Below, one piece after another: positions 2,586-12,699 of a stretch of 63,004 nucleotides of DNA. The stretch is from a virus (lineage: Duplodnaviria; Caudoviricetes). The DNA is taken from IMG/VR virus record IMGVR_UViG_3300010354_000089, positions 1 to 63,004 of that record; one strand, given 5' to 3'. A program made the translations under genes and the position numbers. The notes beneath the pieces were generated by a model, which saw nothing but the letters and a program-made list of their open reading frames with translations, made no database searches and was not told where the DNA came from. The first letter of the stretch is position 1; each line of letters opens with the position of its first letter.

Positions 2586-2768
2586 TCATTTAGGGTTATC
2601 TGTTTTATAAAAGCCTGTACCCTTAAACTGAATTCCAAATGTTCCAAACTGCTTTACCATAGCAGCACCACATTTATCACAAAGCTCTGTCATACTAGAT
2701 TCACTAATTGGCTTGTTAACCTCTTTAGTGTGTTCACAAATTATACATTTATAATCATAAGCTGGCAC
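2586..2768 (-). CDS. FmdB-family zinc-ribbon protein
   Basis: MPAYDYKC..C, CDKCG and FKGTGFYKTD signature. Confidence 0.85.
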   Translation of the reverse strand: MPAYDYKCIICEHTKEVNKPISESSMTELCDKCGAAMVKQFGTFGIQFKGTGFYKTDNPK

Positions 2769-3534
2769 TTTGAATCTCCAAAAATCTTTTTGTCATAGCA
2801 TGTATTCTATACTCTTGATCGTCATCAGGATGTCTAGATATTAGAACATCTGTTATACCTAACATATTCATTTTTTTTATTTTATTTATTACTTCTTCTT
2901 CAGTACCAAAAATAGTAGAGTCTTTCATCATCTGACTTTGCTCTTCGGCAAACAGCTTTTTAGCCTCTTCATTTGAGTCTCTAACAATAACCCTACATGC
3001 AGCTATTTTTCTTTTTGTATTTACATTAAGTCCTTCAAGATAGCTTGACCTCATGGCAAGATGAGCATCAGCATATTTTTCTGAATTCTTTATAGTTTTT
3101 AAAGATGTACCGCTTACAACTATCTCTGGCTTATCGTTTAAATATGTTAAAGATGTAAATTTCTCTAGCCATTGAGATGTATAATCTACTCTTTTTTCAT
3201 ATGTATCTAGCAAATCTTTTATAGCCACAACGTCATTAACGCTAGTTTCTTCACTTTTTAAATCACCAGCAGCAACATTTAATATAACCCTATTTTTACT
3301 AATCATATCAAAAGCTTTGCACATCATTGCACAATATTCTGGGCTGACTGAGTATGTTCTAACTGCAAACATATACTTTAACTTATGCTCTTTATTAATA
3401 ATATTTGCAACTCTAACCATATAGTCTGGTATTAAAGAATGATAAACTAATAGAACAGACTCATATCCAGCATAATCTAAAACATTTGAAAGAATTCTTA
3501 GATTCTCTGGCGTATCGTCGCTATGCTGCCTCAT
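2755..3534 (-). CDS. Luciferase-like (LLM) flavin-dependent monooxygenase
   Basis: AGYESVLL, LKYMFAVR..SP, NRVILNVAAG and FGTEEEV motifs typical of the SsuD/LLM TIM barrel; frame stays open about 9 codons upstream (..IKLHW). Confidence 0.7.
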   Translation of the reverse strand: MRQHSDDTPENLRILSNVLDYAGYESVLLVYHSLIPDYMVRVANIINKEHKLKYMFAVRTYSVSPEYCAMMCKAFDMISKNRVILNVAAGDLKSEETSVNDVVAIKDLLDTYEKRVDYTSQWLEKFTSLTYLNDKPEIVVSGTSLKTIKNSEKYADAHLAMRSSYLEGLNVNTKRKIAACRVIVRDSNEEAKKLFAEEQSQMMKDSTIFGTEEEVINKIKKMNMLGITDVLISRHPDDDQEYRIHAMTKRFLEIQSASL

Positions 3535-3569
3535 CCAATGAAGTTTAATTTTTATACCTATCTAATAAT

Positions 3570-3650
3570 GGGAGCAGTTTAGCCACATGCTCAGGTGGAT
3601 CCTAGGCAACTATGCCCGCATCTGCGACTCCCCAGTGACGGGGTGCAGAC
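3570..3650 (-). ncRNA. Putative structured RNA or leader: two hairpins plus an H-type pseudoknot
   Basis: GC-rich island after TATAAT (3655-3660); stems UCUGC/GCAGA, CCCC/GGGG, GGCA/UGCC, CCAC/GUGG; loop GAGCA can pair with downstream UGCUC. Confidence 0.55.
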
Positions 3651-3662
3651 TTCTATTATACA

Positions 3663-4082
3663 TTATTTAATTTTGATTGTCTTCGGTTTCTTTTCTTCTG
3701 GGATGTTTCTTTCCACAAAGATATCAAGAATGCCGTCTGCCATTTCAGCACGATCAACCTCCATATACTCTCCAAGAGCAAAGGTGCGTGTGAATTTTCT
3801 GGCTGCGATACCTCTATGTAGTACTTCTTGAGAAGACTCTTCGGATTTCTCACCCTTGATTACTAAGCTTCCATTATCCACAGAAACCTCAACTTCACTC
3901 TTGCTAAATCCAGCAAGAGCTAAAGACAACTTGTAAGTATCATCATCAATCTTTACCAAGTTATATGGTGGATATGATTGATGAATTGACTCACGATGGA
4001 TATTTGAAAGACGGTCCAACTCTCTGTTGAAACCAATAAAAAACGGATCATTAAAAAGATCCAATGAAAAATGTGTTACCAT
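3663..4082 (-). CDS. hsp20: Small heat-shock protein (Hsp20/IbpA-like)
   Basis: YPPYNL, ALAGF, HRGIAARKFTRTF and DGIL motifs. Confidence 0.95.
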   Translation of the reverse strand: MVTHFSLDLFNDPFFIGFNRELDRLSNIHRESIHQSYPPYNLVKIDDDTYKLSLALAGFSKSEVEVSVDNGSLVIKGEKSEESSQEVLHRGIAARKFTRTFALGEYMEVDRAEMADGILDIFVERNIPEEKKPKTIKIK

Positions 4083-4141
4083 TTTATTCCTCCTTTAAGC
4101 GAATAAATTAATATACGGGCCCCGTTAGGCGACCCGTATAT
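4083..4141 (-). promoter_or_regulatory. hsp20 5'UTR: stable hairpin plus a ROSE-like thermometer hairpin sequestering the SD
   Basis: AUAUACGGG...CCCGUAUAU stem, then UUUAUUCGCU-UAA-AGGAGGAAUAAA; promoter TGATATAAT at about 4142-4150. Confidence 0.6.
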
Positions 4142-4156
4142 ATTATATCAAATGTA

Positions 4157-4411
4157 TTAATTTTTGCCAAATATTTTTTTAACTTTTGGAACACAATTTG
4201 GGACACGCTTTCCGTCCTTTGTTTTCCATCCAATTTGCTCATAACCTTCCCAGCATGGGTTAGCCTTTTCAACTTCATTAGCGTACAAGGCTCTCATATG
4301 AGCTTTAGCTTTAGATTCGCTTTCGTGACACCCAACAAGCTCTCCAGTGTCTTCTTTTACAACTGCGTATCCGCTGCAACCTGCTGCCCCTCTTTTAATA
4401 TTCCAAGGCAT
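4157..4411 (-). CDS. Hypothetical protein with a CWEGY...VPNCVP motif
   Basis: ORF track; tight spacing to neighbours; two Cys pairs. Confidence 0.65.
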   Translation of the reverse strand: MPWNIKRGAAGCSGYAVVKEDTGELVGCHESESKAKAHMRALYANEVEKANPCWEGYEQIGWKTKDGKRVPNCVPKVKKIFGKN

Positions 4412-4413
4412 GA

Positions 4414-4617
4414 TTACTTCTTCTTTGTAGTTTTCTTAACTGTCTTCTTGGCTGCTGGCTTGGCTGCTGGTGCCTTAGTAGCTGGAGCCTTCTTTGTTAC
4501 CTTCTTCTTTGCTGGCATTATTTTTTCCTCCTTATCAATTTCTTCAATAAACGTATCAGCGCTTATTACTGGTTGTGGAAATCCAAACCATGTTTTAAAT
4601 CTTTTTCTTAATGACAT
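4414..4617 (-). CDS. Small protein with a histone H1/HupB-like Lys-Ala-Pro tail
   Basis: C-terminus PAKKKVTKKAPATKAPAAKPAAKKTVKKTTKKK; SD AAGGAGG and TGGTATAAT upstream. Confidence 0.7.
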   Translation of the reverse strand: MSLRKRFKTWFGFPQPVISADTFIEEIDKEEKIMPAKKKVTKKAPATKAPAAKPAAKKTVKKTTKKK

Positions 4618-4647
4618 TTTATCCTCCTTTCATATTATACCATTGCG

Positions 4648-4720
4648 AGCCTCGTAACAGAATTGAACTGTTGACCTACGCATTACAAGTGCGTCGCTCT
4701 ACCATCTGAGCTAACAAGGC
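4648..4720 (-). tRNA. tRNA-Thr(UGU)
   Basis: Cloverleaf GCCTTGT/ACGAGGC; anticodon arm ACGCA-CTTGTAA-TGCGT; T-loop TTCAATT; no CCA. Confidence 0.92.
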
Positions 4721-4721
4721 G

Positions 4722-4794
4722 TACCCCTAGTTGGATTCGAACCAACGCTGTCACGATTTTAAGTCGTGTGCCTCTACCACTGGGCTATAAGGGC
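4722..4794 (-). tRNA. tRNA-Leu(UAA) with a short variable loop
   Basis: GCCCTTA/TAGGGGT, discriminator A; CACGA-CTTAAAA-TCGTG; T arm GTTGG-TTCGAAT-CCAAC; 73 nt. Confidence 0.88.
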
Positions 4795-4960
4795 AGATGC
4801 CATTCATGCTATCACAGTTCTACTCGCTGTCCTTAAGCTAATGGCTGTTTATCCTAGTAGGTTAGCAGAGCAATCTCCTTCGGCCTGAACACCTTCGTAT
4901 GATGCGCCTACAGGGTAGGTTTCGGATAAACGATCTCCACATAAATTATTCAGATTTATG
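4795..4960 (-). ncRNA. Putative multi-branched structured RNA embedded in the tRNA array
   Basis: Helices GUUUAUCC/GGAUAAAC, CCUAC/GUAGG, GCCAUU/AAUGGC, ACAG/CUGU, AGAU/AUCU; no ORF in the track. Confidence 0.5.
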
Positions 4961-4967
4961 TTTTGAG

Positions 4968-5040
4968 CTGGACCACCTGGACTCGAACCAGGGACCTAGA
5001 AGTTAACAGCTTCCCGCTCTGCCTGCTGAGCTATGGTCCA
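4968..5040 (-). tRNA. tRNA-Asn(GUU)
   Basis: TGGACCA/TGGTCCA plus G73; GGAAG-CTGTTAA-CTTCT; TTCGAGT. Confidence 0.93.
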
Positions 5041-5044
5041 ATTG

Positions 5045-5117
5045 CGCCTTTGGCAGGAGTCGAACCTGCGACCAAGACCTTAGAAGAGTCCTGCTCTGTC
5101 CTCTGAGCTACAAAGGC
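5045..5117 (-). tRNA. tRNA-Arg(UCU)
   Basis: GCCTTTG/CAAAGGC; GGACT-CTTCTAA-GGTCT; TTCGACT. Confidence 0.93.
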
Positions 5118-5410
5118 TAGTCGTCTTCTGGGATTAATCCCATTTCTTTTAATGCTTTTTCGCCTTCTTCTGATAATGAAATAGATGCATTAAGATCTTC
5201 ATCATATTCAACATTTAATAAACCTTTTTCTAATAAGGAAATAAGGCTATCGTCAATATGCTTTCTATGAGCTTCCCATAATTCTGGGGCTAAAAACTCT
5301 GCTTTTTCTGTAATCTTAAACAAAATTTCTCCGTCCTCGTCTACACCAGTAGCTTCTATAGCTCCAATTTCAAGATAGTAATCTATGCTTGGCAATTCAA
5401 AATCTTCCAT
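5117..5410 (-). CDS. Acidic hypothetical protein (possible winged-helix-like repeats)
   Basis: SD GGAG and TATAAT upstream; ORF track. Confidence 0.7.
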   Translation of the reverse strand: MEDFELPSIDYYLEIGAIEATGVDEDGEILFKITEKAEFLAPELWEAHRKHIDDSLISLLEKGLLNVEYDEDLNASISLSEEGEKALKEMGLIPEDD

Positions 5411-5442
5411 TTCATCTCCTAATTATAATATACTAACCTGAT

Positions 5443-6483
5443 CTAGTCAATATCTTTTACAAAATTTAATTCATTTATAATTTCTTCTATATTATTTGAA
5501 ACATTATGATAATCTATAAAATTAAAGTTTTTAAATTTATATATTTCTTTATAATTAAACCTATTTGTATAACCTGCTATTAAATTTAATTCAATTATAT
5601 TAGTATTTTCTTTTGCTGCTAATAAGTTGACCCAAGCACTACCATTTAGTCCTGCAATATGGGTTGCATTATAGAATAAGTTTAATTGGTCTAACAGTGG
5701 CATACCTTCTAAGCATACACTTTGATATCCTATTGAATTAAAATATTTTTCTATTGAATCCTCTTCATCAAAGACACGAATTATTGGATTGGCTAGTGGA
5801 TTATTTGTTGGACTCTGTTTTAATTCATTTTTATATCTTATATTATTTAGTTTTCTTGAAATATAAATTTTTTTAGGAAGGTTTTTTTCTTCACACAAAT
5901 TAGATAAATATTCAGACATAGACTTTATATCTCTATGCTTTGAGTAGTCTCTTCCAGCAAATGGAGTTGGTAAGTCTACAGCAACATAAAAGTTTTCAAA
6001 TAATAAATTATCAGATTCTATTGTATAGATTTGTCTATCAGGAGAAAAAATATTAACAAGTTCTCTTGTATATTCATGATAATTTATTTCATTATATTTC
6101 CTCATACCAAACGGATATCTATATAGATAGTCTAAATAAGTATCAACTGATCTATCTTCAAAATCATCTCTCCATATTGGACTTTTACCCATCATGGAAT
6201 TAAAGTAGCACTTTAAATCTGGGACATGTGACCTTATAAAAAAATATTCTCCCATCATATCTAGCATGCTGTGATGATAAAAGTAATGTAAGGTGGCTAG
6301 AAAACAATCTCCTTCAAATTTTATTTGTGGCTTTTTGCTATTTGGGTTGATTCTTAAATTCTTAAATTTAACTATATGAGATATTGAAGTTTCGTTTAAA
6401 CCTCTCTCTGCTCTACTATCTACAAAACCAACTTCTTGTATTTCTACTCCGTCAGCTTCCCATTTTATTCTTTTAGCTTCCAT
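5443..6483 (-). CDS. Glycosyltransferase family 61 (DUF563-like)
   Basis: HYFYHH, KIYISRK and DQLNLFYNATHIAGLNGSAWVNLL GT61 signature. Confidence 0.8.
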   Translation of the reverse strand: MEAKRIKWEADGVEIQEVGFVDSRAERGLNETSISHIVKFKNLRINPNSKKPQIKFEGDCFLATLHYFYHHSMLDMMGEYFFIRSHVPDLKCYFNSMMGKSPIWRDDFEDRSVDTYLDYLYRYPFGMRKYNEINYHEYTRELVNIFSPDRQIYTIESDNLLFENFYVAVDLPTPFAGRDYSKHRDIKSMSEYLSNLCEEKNLPKKIYISRKLNNIRYKNELKQSPTNNPLANPIIRVFDEEDSIEKYFNSIGYQSVCLEGMPLLDQLNLFYNATHIAGLNGSAWVNLLAAKENTNIIELNLIAGYTNRFNYKEIYKFKNFNFIDYHNVSNNIEEIINELNFVKDID

Positions 6484-7957
6484 AGCTTCCTCCAATAATT
6501 TTTGTATTATACTCTTTTTCCCAATTAATTATATCCAGCTTATCATTTAATAAAGGCTGACCTTTTATATTTAAACTAGTATTTAGTAGGACTGGAACCC
6601 CTGTCATTGCATACCAATTCGCCAACACTTCATACAAACCTGGGTGTTGAATTTTATTTACAGTTTGAACTCTTGACGTACCGTCTTTGTGCACTACAGA
6701 TGGTATTTTGTCTGGCTGTAAGCATTCAACAGCATACTGCATGTACGGACTTGTAAAATTCATTTTAAACCATTTGTGTGCATACTCTTCCATAACCACT
6801 GGAGCAAATGGCCTAAAGAGTTCTCTTTTTTTAATAAGATTAACTTTATCTTTAATATTTGGATCTCTAGGGTCTGCCAATATGCTTCTGTTTCCTAATG
6901 CCCTTGGTCCGTATTCTGCTCTTCCAGTTGCAACCGCAGCTATTTTATTTTTTAATAGCTCAGTAATTATTTGTGTTACTGGATACGGTCCGCCAAGATC
7001 GTGACCAAGGTATGGGTTTTCCCACTCTACGTGTTTTCCATATAAAGCTGCAGCAGCTCCTAAAGAACTTCCAGCATCTCCTGGATTTGGCATTATCCAG
7101 ATGTCCTCATATATATCCCATAGTTTTGTATTTGCTGAACAGTTTAAAGCACACCCGCCCATAAAAACTAAATTTTTCTTTTTAGTTATAAGTTTTGCAT
7201 ATCTCATAAATTCTATAAGCCTTAATTGATATACTTTTTGAACTGCTGCTGCGAGATCAAATTTTCTTTGATCAAACCACTCTTTAACATAAGGCGTACC
7301 AATTTGTCCAACCATACAAGGCACCATGCCCCAATCAAAATCATGTATTCCTTTATGAAAATTATATTTTTGTTGATTAAAAACTGGGAAGTATTCATTT
7401 ACTTTATCAAAGTATCTATCTGGATTTCCATAAGCAGCCATCCCCATCATTATGTATTCTTCTTCATTTGGTTTTAAGCCAACAAGTTGCGTAAATGCTG
7501 AGTAAAACAATCCAAAACTTATTGGATATTTTTGACTATATACCTCTTTTATTTTTGATCCTTCTCCGACCCATATTGTAGAGGTATCCCACTCCCCAAT
7601 AGCATCTAGGACTACAATAACAGCGTCATTAAACTTGCTTGTATAGTAGCCAGCAGCGGCATGAGATTTATGATGTTTAAAATATTTTACTGGTACGTCA
7701 AATGGTATGTTTGGCTTCCAATCGCTTGCCCCACCTTTTAGCATTAGCCTAGATTTTTTTAGCAAAGGCTTTTCGTAATAGGCTATATGAGTAGGTGTGC
7801 CATAGTTAAGTACATCTAAATATATTTCTTTATTATTATACCAATCGTTTTTTTGTTTACTATATCTTTCAGCATGACTAGCAAACAAAACTTTTCCATC
7901 TTTAATTAAAGATACAGATGCATCGTGAGATGTTTCATTGATTCCTAAAATTATCAT
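6473..7957 (-). CDS. Carbamoyltransferase (NodU/CmcH family)
   Basis: SHDAS, ERYSK.K, HHKSHAA, GGCALN, GDAGSSLG, EYGPRALGNRS, RPFAP and LLNTSLN. Confidence 0.95.
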   Translation of the reverse strand: MIILGINETSHDASVSLIKDGKVLFASHAERYSKQKNDWYNNKEIYLDVLNYGTPTHIAYYEKPLLKKSRLMLKGGASDWKPNIPFDVPVKYFKHHKSHAAAGYYTSKFNDAVIVVLDAIGEWDTSTIWVGEGSKIKEVYSQKYPISFGLFYSAFTQLVGLKPNEEEYIMMGMAAYGNPDRYFDKVNEYFPVFNQQKYNFHKGIHDFDWGMVPCMVGQIGTPYVKEWFDQRKFDLAAAVQKVYQLRLIEFMRYAKLITKKKNLVFMGGCALNCSANTKLWDIYEDIWIMPNPGDAGSSLGAAAALYGKHVEWENPYLGHDLGGPYPVTQIITELLKNKIAAVATGRAEYGPRALGNRSILADPRDPNIKDKVNLIKKRELFRPFAPVVMEEYAHKWFKMNFTSPYMQYAVECLQPDKIPSVVHKDGTSRVQTVNKIQHPGLYEVLANWYAMTGVPVLLNTSLNIKGQPLLNDKLDIINWEKEYNTKIIGGSYGS

Positions 7958-10145: not shown

Positions 10146-10371
10146 TAGATATAGACTCCTCTACTATTTGCTGCACATATTCAGAAAAATGTTTTCTTAT
10201 ACTTCCTGCTGGCCTTGATCCAGTGCTAGTCCACAACCTTTTATATTCATTTACATTTGCAAATGTTGTTGGACATAGTGATATTCCATTATATTCTTTG
10301 AGTATTGTTGGTAGCGGAACATGCTTACCACAACATTTACATTCCTTTGCTCTTTCTTGATAAACACTCAT
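10126..10371 (-). CDS. Hypothetical protein (Cys-containing)
   Basis: ATGA-coupled to terL; CKCC and LCPT. Confidence 0.7.
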   Translation of the reverse strand: MSVYQERAKECKCCGKHVPLPTILKEYNGISLCPTTFANVNEYKRLWTSTGSRPAGSIRKHFSEYVQQIVEESISNEKNIL

Positions 10372-12167
10372 ATTATTTGCATCCTATCTACCGCTTCTCT
10401 TAACTGTTCTGGCATATGTGGAGCCCTTATTAAATTAATGGCCTCTGGTCCTTTTTCTAAAGGATTGAAGTCGTTGTCATACGACATTGATTCATATGTA
10501 TGAACTTTGATTTCTTGATTTGAATCAAACCTAGTTCTGCTTATAGAGTTAAAAATAGATCCACAAACTGCATCCGCCAAGTCTTTAGATCCTTTTCTTG
10601 GGTGATCAACTTTATCACGCATTATTTTTAACTGCAATAGTTCATCAATTAATAAAGGTATGTGTGGGCCGTTTAACCTTTCTTCTAAAACAACCATTGC
10701 CATATCATCATAATGTTTCTTTGCAACTGATAATATTTCTGTATTAATTCCATAAGCTTTTAGCTGCTGCATCATGTCATGAGAATTCCAGCGATCAAAT
10801 GTACAAACTCTAATTTTAAATCCACGAGTTCTAAGAGATAGAATATAATCTTTTACTTCTGTAAAGTCAACAGATCTATCTGGTGTCGGTGTCCAATATC
10901 TAACAGCATCTACTTCAACAATTGGAGCTGGCTGAGAGTAGGTGTCAGTTACTTTTACGTTTACCCATCTTTGAACGTGTGCCATAGCAACTGCACAATG
11001 GTCATGTTTTTGTGCAAGGTCAACGTGTATAAAATATTCTTTATCTGGGTCTGGGGCAAACCAGTCTTCTAAACGTCCAAACTGATCCACGGCTAAAGTA
11101 GTTTTATTAAAAGCTTTTTCTACCTTTTCACGAGACTTAAAAAATGCATCTATCATTTCTGGTGGCATGCAGGCAAATCTTCCAAGTGCATCTAAAGAAT
11201 TTTTATAGAATGATGTTTTAAAATCATCTATACTTCTTGTTGGATTGACTTCCCATGTTGGTCTTTTTAAAGCGTATACTTTAGGAACCGAATATGATTT
11301 GATGTGGTCTTCTTCCCATTCAATTTCAAACTCATTTCCATCTGTGTTATCTGGAAGGTCTTCGTCCATTTTAAATTTATGAGACCTAATAATAACTTCT
11401 TTTTCTGCAATAGCTGAATCATAGAACTTTTGAATAGGATCGTTTTTAAAGCGTGGGAAAGACAGCAAAATAACCTTACCAAAGTCTGGAAAACGGGAAT
11501 CTACTGAGGCCCTATACATTTCATATATCGCATCTGCTGTCTTTGCCTGATCATGTCCAGTTGTATTTTCTATAGCAAATCCAGATATCTCATCAAGAAT
11601 AACTGCTATAACGTTATAGCCTTCCCAAGCTTCTCTTTCTGAGTGACCAGAATGAACTGTTACTGATTTATCAAATTTAATCTCTGAAGCTTTAGATTCA
11701 TACTTTCCAGCAAACCATGGAGACCTATCTATTCTTTGTTTAAACCCTTTAAAGAAAACATTGTTTGCCTGCTGTGCGTTAATAGCAATGTTCAAAATAT
11801 CTATTGAATCTCCAGGTGGCTTATTGTAATATGTGGCAGGATCTTTTAAACATAATAGTAAATATACTATATATGACACAGCAATGGTAGAACAATAATC
11901 TTTACCAGATCCTTTGCCAAGCTGAGCAATAACTTCAGTTGCTGTTTGCTTATATAGTCTTTGTCCTTCTTCTTCTCCAAATAATTTAATTAGAGTTGAC
12001 TCTTTGTATATTTGAGAACTTTTTTCAATCAAAGTATATTGTAAAGTAGATAGCGGAGGCAGTCCAAGATAGTCTGGATGGGTAACAAATGTTTTTAAAT
12101 CGACTGGTCTTTGATCAAATTCTTCGCCATCGAGTATATCTATAAAGTCATTAAAGTTAAGATCCAC
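10368..12167 (-). CDS. terL: Terminase large subunit
   Basis: Walker A GKGSGKD, Walker B VILDE, nuclease HVDLA and KDLADA; probable GTG start at 12167. Confidence 0.9.
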   Translation of the reverse strand: MDLNFNDFIDILDGEEFDQRPVDLKTFVTHPDYLGLPPLSTLQYTLIEKSSQIYKESTLIKLFGEEEGQRLYKQTATEVIAQLGKGSGKDYCSTIAVSYIVYLLLCLKDPATYYNKPPGDSIDILNIAINAQQANNVFFKGFKQRIDRSPWFAGKYESKASEIKFDKSVTVHSGHSEREAWEGYNVIAVILDEISGFAIENTTGHDQAKTADAIYEMYRASVDSRFPDFGKVILLSFPRFKNDPIQKFYDSAIAEKEVIIRSHKFKMDEDLPDNTDGNEFEIEWEEDHIKSYSVPKVYALKRPTWEVNPTRSIDDFKTSFYKNSLDALGRFACMPPEMIDAFFKSREKVEKAFNKTTLAVDQFGRLEDWFAPDPDKEYFIHVDLAQKHDHCAVAMAHVQRWVNVKVTDTYSQPAPIVEVDAVRYWTPTPDRSVDFTEVKDYILSLRTRGFKIRVCTFDRWNSHDMMQQLKAYGINTEILSVAKKHYDDMAMVVLEERLNGPHIPLLIDELLQLKIMRDKVDHPRKGSKDLADAVCGSIFNSISRTRFDSNQEIKVHTYESMSYDNDFNPLEKGPEAINLIRAPHMPEQLREAVDRMQII

Positions 12168-12699
12168 TGACCTGCTCTGCATCTATTACTACTGGCTCAA
12201 CTATACCAGTTATTTGAGACAATCTTTTTGCTACTTCTAATTTACATTTTGAACAAGTAGAAGTAACTTCTTTTAATATCCCAACAAGAATTTCTTGTTT
12301 TCTTTCCGCCTCTGCTACTTGACCAGCTATTTCATTATTTTCTAAAACGCCTACGGACTGCAGCATACCTATTCTTTTTGTTTCAATATCTGAAATTAAC
12401 TTAAGAGCATTTGCTTTTACATTAAGCTGCCCTGCTTGGTCAGCATCTTCTACAGTTTTCCATGCTTCTTTAATAAGCATTGCATAATGTTGATCCGCTC
12501 CAGAAACGGCTTCCTTAGCCCTTTCTCTCATATTAATATCATTATGGACAACAGACTTCCATTCGTCTATATATCCCAAAACTTCTTTACGAGAGAATCC
12601 AGTAAGGGTAGCAATTTGTGTAGCTGAGTTTCCTTTTAAAAGCTCCTCAACAACCTTATTCATTCTGTCAAAGTGGACAGCAGGCTCTAAATCAGACAT
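12157..12699 (-). CDS. Probable terminase small subunit (N-terminal HTH, coiled coil)
   Basis: HTH-like GNSATQIATLTGFSRKEV; directly upstream of terL; TGGTATACT 6 nt before the ATG. Confidence 0.6.
   Translation of the reverse strand: MSDLEPAVHFDRMNKVVEELLKGNSATQIATLTGFSRKEVLGYIDEWKSVVHNDINMRERAKEAVSGADQHYAMLIKEAWKTVEDADQAGQLNVKANALKLISDIETKRIGMLQSVGVLENNEIAGQVAEAERKQEILVGILKEVTSTCSKCKLEVAKRLSQITGIVEPVVIDAEQVSGS

Follow-up and report, generated by a model that had tools for sequence, protein, structure and literature searches.

Four tRNA genes lie on the minus strand of the window, which here means the whole 63,004-nt stretch of viral DNA that was analysed (IMG/VR record IMGVR_UViG_3300010354_000089). 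The question raised by this locus was what occupies the 172 nt (4966-4795, minus strand) between tRNA-Asn and tRNA-Leu, when the Arg-Asn and Leu-Thr spacers measured 3 and 0 nt, respectively. An earlier sequence-only reading had remarked on a gap of about 170 nt among spacers of a few nt, on its GC-richness, on the lack of an ORF and on a 3' end adjoining tRNA-Leu +1, and all these remarks were borne out. The GC content was 0.45-0.49 across the gap versus approximately 0.29-0.37 in the adjacent genes immediately preceding the array, no ORF of at least 40 aa was found on the minus strand of the gap, and tRNA-Leu started at 4794, directly after the last base of the gap. Within 4795-4966, neither ARAGORN nor the Rfam tRNA model at E ≤ 10 called a tRNA. 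When folded as a single sequence, the gap was not unusual (z = -0.85), with 43 of 200 shuffles being equally stable. Since the gap folds no more stably than its shuffles, the support for an RNA comes from homologs and not from thermodynamics.

The surroundings of the array were also inspected. An ORF at 5410-5117 ends at tRNA-Arg, and a promoter-like site upstream of it (Table 1) is consistent with one transcript covering this ORF and the array, although the site is a consensus match only and the region has 8 such sites versus 7.1 expected. The array is flanked by auxiliary-type genes (2755-7957), namely Hsp20, a luciferase-like monooxygenase, a glycosyltransferase 61 and a Nol-like carbamoyltransferase, and the large terminase at 10368-12182 was 63% identical to the terminases of Streptomyces phages. 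Just downstream of the array, a 67-aa lysine/alanine-rich ORF was observed at 4414-4617 (minus strand). Between the Hsp20 and luciferase-like monooxygenase genes lies a GC-richer intergenic stretch of 128 nt (3535-3662, minus strand), for which the fold was not exceptional (z = -0.49) and no Rfam match was obtained.

A family of elements in phage tRNA arrays

Copies of the element were sought with exact and degenerate pattern scans of IMG/VR, GTDB genomes and metagenome contigs, and each copy was confirmed with R1, a covariance model built on a MAFFT alignment of 22 copies (A2). R1 gave 98 matches (53 + 45), 73 of which were distinct, with scores of 92.6-191 bits. The copies came from IMG/VR, metagenome contigs and one MAG contig; the only true copy from the GTDB genome scan was flanked by tRNAs and lay on a MAG contig of 10.7 kb. 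Full-length copies measured 149-173 nt and lay on the tRNA strand. The window contained a single copy, which matched model positions 1-167 with 173.8 bits (E = 7e-33). Six pattern hits (L162, L177, L182, L183, L196 and L211) were discarded as chance matches, since R1 did not match them. When the gap was compared by blastn with 50,697 phage records, no match was found at E ≤ 1; at that sensitivity, none of the cultured phages in this collection appears to carry the element.

No Rfam family matched the element either. At the gathering score, Rfam 15 recognized only the four tRNAs in the window, and at E ≤ 10 the only overlap was SNORD121A noise (20.2 bits versus a gathering score of 44). When nine other copies were searched, no match overlapping the element was obtained at E ≤ 5.

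The placement of the copies was strict. Among the 73 distinct copies, 70 had enough upstream flank and 70 enough downstream flank to be evaluated. On the upstream side, 64 of the 70 had a same-strand tRNA ending 0-1 nt ahead of the model match. On the downstream side, a tRNA started -1 to +2 nt from the match in 63 of the 70 and 56 nt from it in three, and no tRNA was called in four. The identity of the neighbours was variable, with at least 10 different tRNAs upstream (including Asp, Asn, Met, Arg, Gly, Glu, Ile and Leu) and at least 11 downstream (including Thr, Leu, Trp, Gly, Met, Gln, Ile, Asn, Ser and Asp).

Related loci were collected via two neighbouring proteins of the window. The nearest relative was the contig L002/L082, whose neighbouring proteins were 97-100% identical and whose array reads Arg<3>Asn<3>Leu<0>Thr (spacers in nt), with the element absent. 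Another locus, L003, carried a 167-nt homolog between tRNA-Arg and tRNA-Leu. When R1 was run over 99 other loci of window-related tRNA arrays, no further copy was found. Accordingly, the element is accessory and dispensable between near relatives. In the five complete genomes that were searched (98-120 kb), exactly one copy was present in each. Compared with that of the window, the large terminases of these five carriers were 82%, 59% and 56% identical in three cases and undetectable in two; thus, the element occurs in unrelated phage lineages.

To look for a protein partner, 2,982 ORFs were compared with one another by all-against-all BLAST; they came from 97 loci with the element, 127 loci without it and the first 12 kb of the window. 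No protein family was common to most of the 97 element loci when these were compared with the 127 element-free loci. The best element-only cluster, a 126-aa ORF (L133_1 and 19 others) judged HNH-endonuclease-like from motifs read by eye, occurred in 20 of 97 element loci and 0 of 127 element-free loci. This distribution is likely a lineage effect, or it may reflect a link to array mobility. Within the window, no antisense target of the invariant core of the element was found.

Six RNA libraries held a small share of the sampled words of the region. Four of these, from four studies, were aligned, and pieces of the element were found in contigs of all four, which speaks to presence only and not to ends, strand or level, with DNA carry-over being possible. 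The contigs covered 4798-4883 and 4854-4946 in X16, 4814-4915 at a depth of 32.7 in X17, and 4853-4908 in X15, while one in X18 (4694-4842) crossed the boundary between the element and tRNA-Leu and represents either an unprocessed precursor or DNA. Each piece differed from the window at 1-3 positions. In these four libraries, contig cover was absent over 4544-4651 and 5264-5450, which says nothing on whether the flanks are silent. One contig of X17 had an odd repeated joint, and the low-complexity part (4435-4513) of the 67-aa ORF had high-depth matches among the RNA-library contigs, and these probably stem from unrelated basic proteins. The DNA datasets that shared words with the region were mostly labelled freshwater, aquatic, lake or river, which is a hint of habitat only.

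Fold of the element and its covariation

The fold was derived from the homologs. RNAalifold, applied to an independent MAFFT alignment, predicted 39 pairs, of which 21 had compensatory changes. In the alignment of 73 sequences (A5), 98.9% of the cells of 45 pairs were standard pairs and 29 of the 45 pairs had changes on both sides, counts that lean towards the structure because A3-A5 were fitted to model R1. When the partners were slid by 1-3 columns, the double changes numbered 7-12, and none of 500 shuffles reached the observed values on any measure. The column pairs with the highest mutual information all belonged to the proposed structure, and the same scan gave nothing convincing in the way of further tertiary pairs beyond it.

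The fold consists of seven helices and a 6-bp loop-loop pairing of CUGAAY in L1 with RUUCAG in L5 (Table 1). This pairing was added by hand after it was noticed that CUGAAC of the P1 loop and GUUCAG of the P5 loop are exactly complementary. Pair 19-84 was formed in all of 72 sequences, 65 of which had C-G, 4 U-A and 3 U-G. The U-A pairs belong to two different subfamilies with U-G intermediates near each, and the window itself has U-G. Sequence conservation was distributed unevenly: GCAUCAUACGAAG, RUUCAG and GAWGGAGAUUGCUCUG were near-invariant, whereas stems P1, P2, P3 and P7 varied freely. The segments GCAUCAUACGAAG (P4 5' strand and J4/5 region, 4894..4905) and GGAGAUUGCUCUG (J5/6, P6 and the P4 3' strand GC, 4865..4881) were each conserved in at least 97% of the sequences, and the invariant junction and hairpin core amounted to approximately 45 nt.

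The secondary structure first proposed from the window's letters proved about half right. Its arm GUUUAUCC/GGAUAAAC is P2 and its arm GCCAUU/AAUGGC is the base of P7, both being real helices with compensatory changes. In the case of CCUAC/GUAGG, the first CCUAC is not the partner, and the second, which had been offered as an alternative, pairs with GUAGG as P3; L003 has GUGAG/CUCAC at this helix, and its first site, CCGAC, cannot pair. Two further pairings did not hold. GCAUC/GGUGU was wrong, as GG(U) belongs to the covarying 3-bp hairpin GGN-RUUCAG-N'CC (P5), and the closure of the junction by AGAU/AUCU was not conserved, with the 3' tail AUCU present in a single one of the 73 sequences. The proposal had missed both the hairpin at the 5' end (4961-4939) and the pairing of its loop with that of the internal hairpin.

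Two ideas on the 5' part of the element were set aside. A length compensation between P1 and P2 was suggested by a 7-bp P1 always occurring with a 9-bp P2 (14/14), yet a 9-bp P2 with an 8-bp P1 was found in 16 copies. L1 (CUGAACA) was also considered as a mimic of an anticodon loop, and this was dropped as the loop covaries with L5.

Table 1. The tRNA array of the window, the parts of the element between tRNA-Asn and tRNA-Leu, and other inter-tRNA elements located in element-bearing arrays (positions are those of the window unless a locus is named; fractions refer to copies or base pairs)
Feature	Position	Strand	Remarks
Promoter-like site TTGACT-17-TATAAT	5422..5450	minus	upstream of ORF 5410-5117 and the tRNA array
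tRNA-Arg(tct)	5117-5044	minus	ARAGORN and Rfam
tRNA-Asn(gtt), upstream neighbour of element	5040-4967	minus	ARAGORN and Rfam
The element as a whole (172 nt), a single member of the tRNA-array kissing-loop RNA family	4795..4966	minus	R1 match
5' leader UCAAA, right after tRNA-Asn	4962..4966	minus	UCAAA in 31/73; variants UCGAA, CAGAA
P1 hairpin, 8 bp ACAUAAAU/AUUUAUGU, 7-nt loop L1 CUGAAUA (4953-4947)	4939..4961	minus	both-side changes in 7/8 pairs; 98.6% of cells pair (73 sequences)
L1 bases CUGAAU, loop-loop partner of L5	4948..4953	minus	100% of cells pair
Linker GGAGAUC, P1 to P2	4932..4938	minus	GGAGAU in most, not all, copies
P2 5' strand GUUUAUCC	4924..4931	minus	partner 4847-4854; both-side changes in 5/8 pairs; first sign, three compensatory changes versus L003
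J2/3 GAAACCUACCCU, 12-nt linker holding the first CCUAC	4912..4923	minus	length nearly constant, sequence variable; only the leading GAA conserved
P3 5' strand GUAGG	4907..4911	minus	partner CCUAC at 4857-4861; both-side changes in 5/5 pairs
P4 5' strand GC and 3' strand	4904-4905; 4866-4865	minus	pair 69-109: G-C 66, G-U 5, A-U 2
J4/5 AUCAUACGAA	4894-4903	minus	invariant
P5 hairpin GGU-GUUCAG-GCC; loop L5 (4885-4890) pairs with L1	4882..4893	minus	100% of cells pair; pair 83-90: U-A 26, G-C 22, C-G 19, U-G 6
J5/6 GAA	4881-4879	minus	
P6 hairpin GGAG-AUUG-CUCU	4878-4867	minus	invariant; 99.7% of cells pair, no double changes
J UAA, P3 3' strand CCUAC, UA bulge, P2 3' strand GGAUAAAC	4847..4864	minus	
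P7, variable-length 3' hairpin, base GCCAUU/AAUGGC	4799..4845	minus	both-side changes in 8/9 pairs; short and long forms both present; ACAG/CUGU inside a variable extension missing from many copies
3' tail AUCU, ends at tRNA-Leu +1	4795..4798	minus	last base U in 48/73
tRNA-Leu(taa), downstream neighbour of element	4794-4721	minus	ARAGORN and Rfam
tRNA-Thr(tgt)	4720-4647	minus	ARAGORN and Rfam
manA RNAs flush between tRNA genes	L141:1453-1634; L143:90-271; L149:1730-1916; L181:12051-12235; L198:11768-11949; L219:2703-2888; L228:1612-1793		
Further family, about 138-164 nt	L175:7801-7964; L188:602-761; L160:443-604		
Further family, about 124-131 nt	L175:8037-8160; L188:834-961; L195:8506-8634		
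Further family, 173 nt	L143:344-516; L228:1367-1539		

Comparison with known phage RNAs and other occupants of the arrays

The element was compared with RNAs known from phages. We know of no function for rnaC and rnaD of phage T4. These stable non-tRNA RNAs (species 1, 139 nt, and species 2, 119 nt) lie in the tRNA cluster of the phage, on the same strand and 1-6 nt from a neighbouring tRNA or RNA gene (annotation of NC_000866), and they are in this respect like the element. However, rnaC ends in tRNA-like T-arm/acceptor sequence, which the element does not have, and both T4 genes stand at the end of the cluster whereas the element lies between two tRNAs. No homology to rnaC/rnaD (70908-71171) was detected when R1 was run with filters off over T4 68000-76000, with no match at E ≤ 10. 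The two cases may share a common logic of biogenesis, as small RNAs made within a tRNA cluster.

A likeness in setting was also seen with manA (RF01745), a phage RNA of approximately 185-215 nt with loop-loop complementarities that directly adjoins tRNAs on both sides in the same arrays. In sequence and fold it differs from the element, and it is catalogued in Rfam; its model (gathering score 55.2 bits) gave no match at E ≤ 10 over 3400-5300 of the window. Copies of manA with 56-69 bits were found in slots neighbouring the element in 7 of 15 loci scanned (Table 1), with the array of L141 reading Asn-[manA]-Asp-[element]-Thr. In the available portion of PMC2864571, manA is described as a putative, probable cis-regulatory element. 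Its position flush between tRNAs fits better with a free, processed RNA than with that published reading. According to the accessible part of a 2026 preprint (10.64898/2026.07.01.735769), manA RNAs form RNA cages of 8, 10 and 60 subunits through intermolecular kissing loops, whereas the L1-L5 pairing of the element is known from covariation alone.

Two other comparisons concern RNAs that are larger or have a known role. ROOL is several times longer than the element. The pRNA of phi29-like phages is essential and is part of their packaging motor. Like the element, pRNA is a phage RNA of approximately 120-174 nt with two mutually complementary loops (PMC4201828, in the part available), but the element is dispensable between close relatives, is found in tRNA arrays and has no Rfam match. 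GOLLD and ROOL are phage or prophage RNAs with intricate covarying folds, often near tRNA islands, and form RNA-only cages by cryo-EM, with GOLLD several times longer than the element and often >800 nt (all from the available text of PMC12286853); the element has no Rfam match to them or to any other family. No description of the element family was found in full-text searches of the literature, although an unnamed entry is possible among the 8,495 candidate RNAs catalogued from IMG/VR, of which the source (PMC10690425) was available in part. The element family is a real, uncatalogued kissing-loop RNA embedded in tRNA arrays.

The arrays that carry the element were also observed to hold other gap elements of 120-215 nt, and the inter-tRNA gaps in element loci fell into two size classes, one of 0-20 nt and one of about 120-200 nt. 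Besides manA, at least three recurrent inter-tRNA families without an Rfam match at gathering score were distinguished (Table 1). In a complete 98-kb phage (G001), the long gaps at L133:1689-1790 and L133 about 1260-1389 share the motif GUGUGCAAAC...CGUUAAAAAC and may be another small RNA type. A different 141-nt element occupies an Asn-Gly slot at L108:4538-4678, whereas L106 has Asn<3>Gly; here too, a tRNA-slot element is polymorphic in its presence. An array gene at L143:1998-2083 scored 47.8 bits with the selenocysteine-tRNA model, against a gathering score of 47, and may be only a long-arm tRNA.

Proposed role of the element and its meaning

The family has a conserved covarying fold, a strict placement between tRNAs, one copy per genome and a spread across lineages. 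We consider that the gap probably encodes a free-standing RNA, small and structured and from an uncatalogued family, that occupies a "tRNA slot" of phage arrays and acts in trans through a core that serves as a binding surface. The RNA would be transcribed within the polycistronic tRNA precursor, its 3' end being created by the RNase P cut at tRNA-Leu +1 and its 5' end by 3'-end processing of tRNA-Asn. The sequence-only reading had likewise suggested a novel ncRNA released by tRNA processing, and this is supported by the covarying family, the lack of an Rfam match, the flush tRNAs and the RNA-library contigs.

As judged from covariation, the long stem P2-P3-P4 ends in a three-way junction carrying the 3-bp P5 and the invariant P6, and the P1 loop CUGAAY forms 6 bp with the P5 loop RUUCAG; the variable P7 then follows. 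The loop-loop pairing appears to be the keystone of the fold and is most likely intramolecular. In such a compact fold, a stack of P5, the kissing pairing and P1 (16-17 bp) would lie beside P4-P3-P2 (15-16 bp), the two being tied by the linker of 7-9 nt. The RNA would act in trans, with the invariant junction and P6 core presenting a sequence-specific binding surface to a protein, an RNA or a small ligand common to the hosts.

The first alternative keeps the fold but places the pairing of L1 with L5 between molecules, so that the RNA would assemble head-to-tail into a ring, cage or filament like manA RNAs and phi29 pRNA. Covariation is blind to whether the pairing forms within one molecule or between molecules, and each molecule carries two loops with perfect complementarity over 6 bases, which covary. 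The manA RNAs, which score above the RF01745 gathering score in arrays with the element and are reported to multimerize through such loops, point the same way, as do the cages reported for ROOL and GOLLD near tRNA islands. On the other hand, the element is not homologous to manA, and the helix lengths given above permit closure within one molecule, which is a geometric inference and was not computed. We regard assembly between molecules as a serious, though less favoured, reading. It is possible, if less likely, that head-to-tail L1-L5' kissing builds an RNA-only ring, cage or filament, in which case the arrays would be cassettes of self-assembling RNAs released by RNase P.

An action in cis, in which the element governs how the adjacent tRNA is processed or expressed, for instance as a ligand-sensing switch, was judged unlikely. 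The element always adjoins tRNAs with which it would be co-transcribed, and the conserved junction could serve as a ligand pocket. However, the diversity of the flanking tRNAs, with at least 11 identities downstream and at least 10 upstream, leaves no specific client, and the top mutual-information pairs contained no signal of alternative pairing as expected for a switch.

Small ribozymes adjoining phage tRNAs are known, and the sequence-only reading had also proposed a processing ribozyme. The element lies flush against tRNA ends, which a self-cleaving or processing ribozyme could trim, and its invariant junction core and complex tertiary fold are ribozyme-like. Nevertheless, no self-cleaving family matched the element at E ≤ 10 or nine other copies at E ≤ 5, the Rfam models searched including hammerhead, HDV-like, twister, twister-sister, pistol, hatchet and hairpin. 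The core motifs of hammerhead, HDV and twister were not visible in the consensus, and in most of the related phages the same tRNAs are processed from arrays that lack the element. The proposal thus found no support, and we consider it quite improbable.

It is hardly credible that the gap is non-functional DNA, such as degenerate tRNA genes, the scar left by an insertion or a short protein-coding ORF: presence/absence between close relatives and a length of about two tRNAs would suit this reading, but compensatory changes were strong across 73 distinct, not near-identical recent, sequences, the tRNA model and ARAGORN both had no match in the gap, and the 26-codon open frame of the window is lost in relatives through 1-nt indels in stems. 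A short coding frame with SD-like GGAGAU repeats was rejected in the same way, neither being conserved as a coding or start signal.

Returning to the free-standing RNA that we favour, the finding bears on how phage tRNA arrays are read. Phage tRNA islands hold RNAs of no known role, including T4 rnaC/rnaD, GOLLD, ROOL and manA, several of which are reported as RNA-only cages. The element family is a compact example of 150-170 nt, and its covariation, kissing pairing and invariant core make it tractable for structural and assembly tests. Near-identical phages with and without it provide natural isogenic pairs for asking what role such RNAs have. The finding also shows that a long gap in a phage tRNA array deserves annotation as an RNA gene and not as a spacer. 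If self-assembly proved true, then, together with manA and the other array families, the tRNA arrays would be expression cassettes for a toolkit of self-assembling RNAs.
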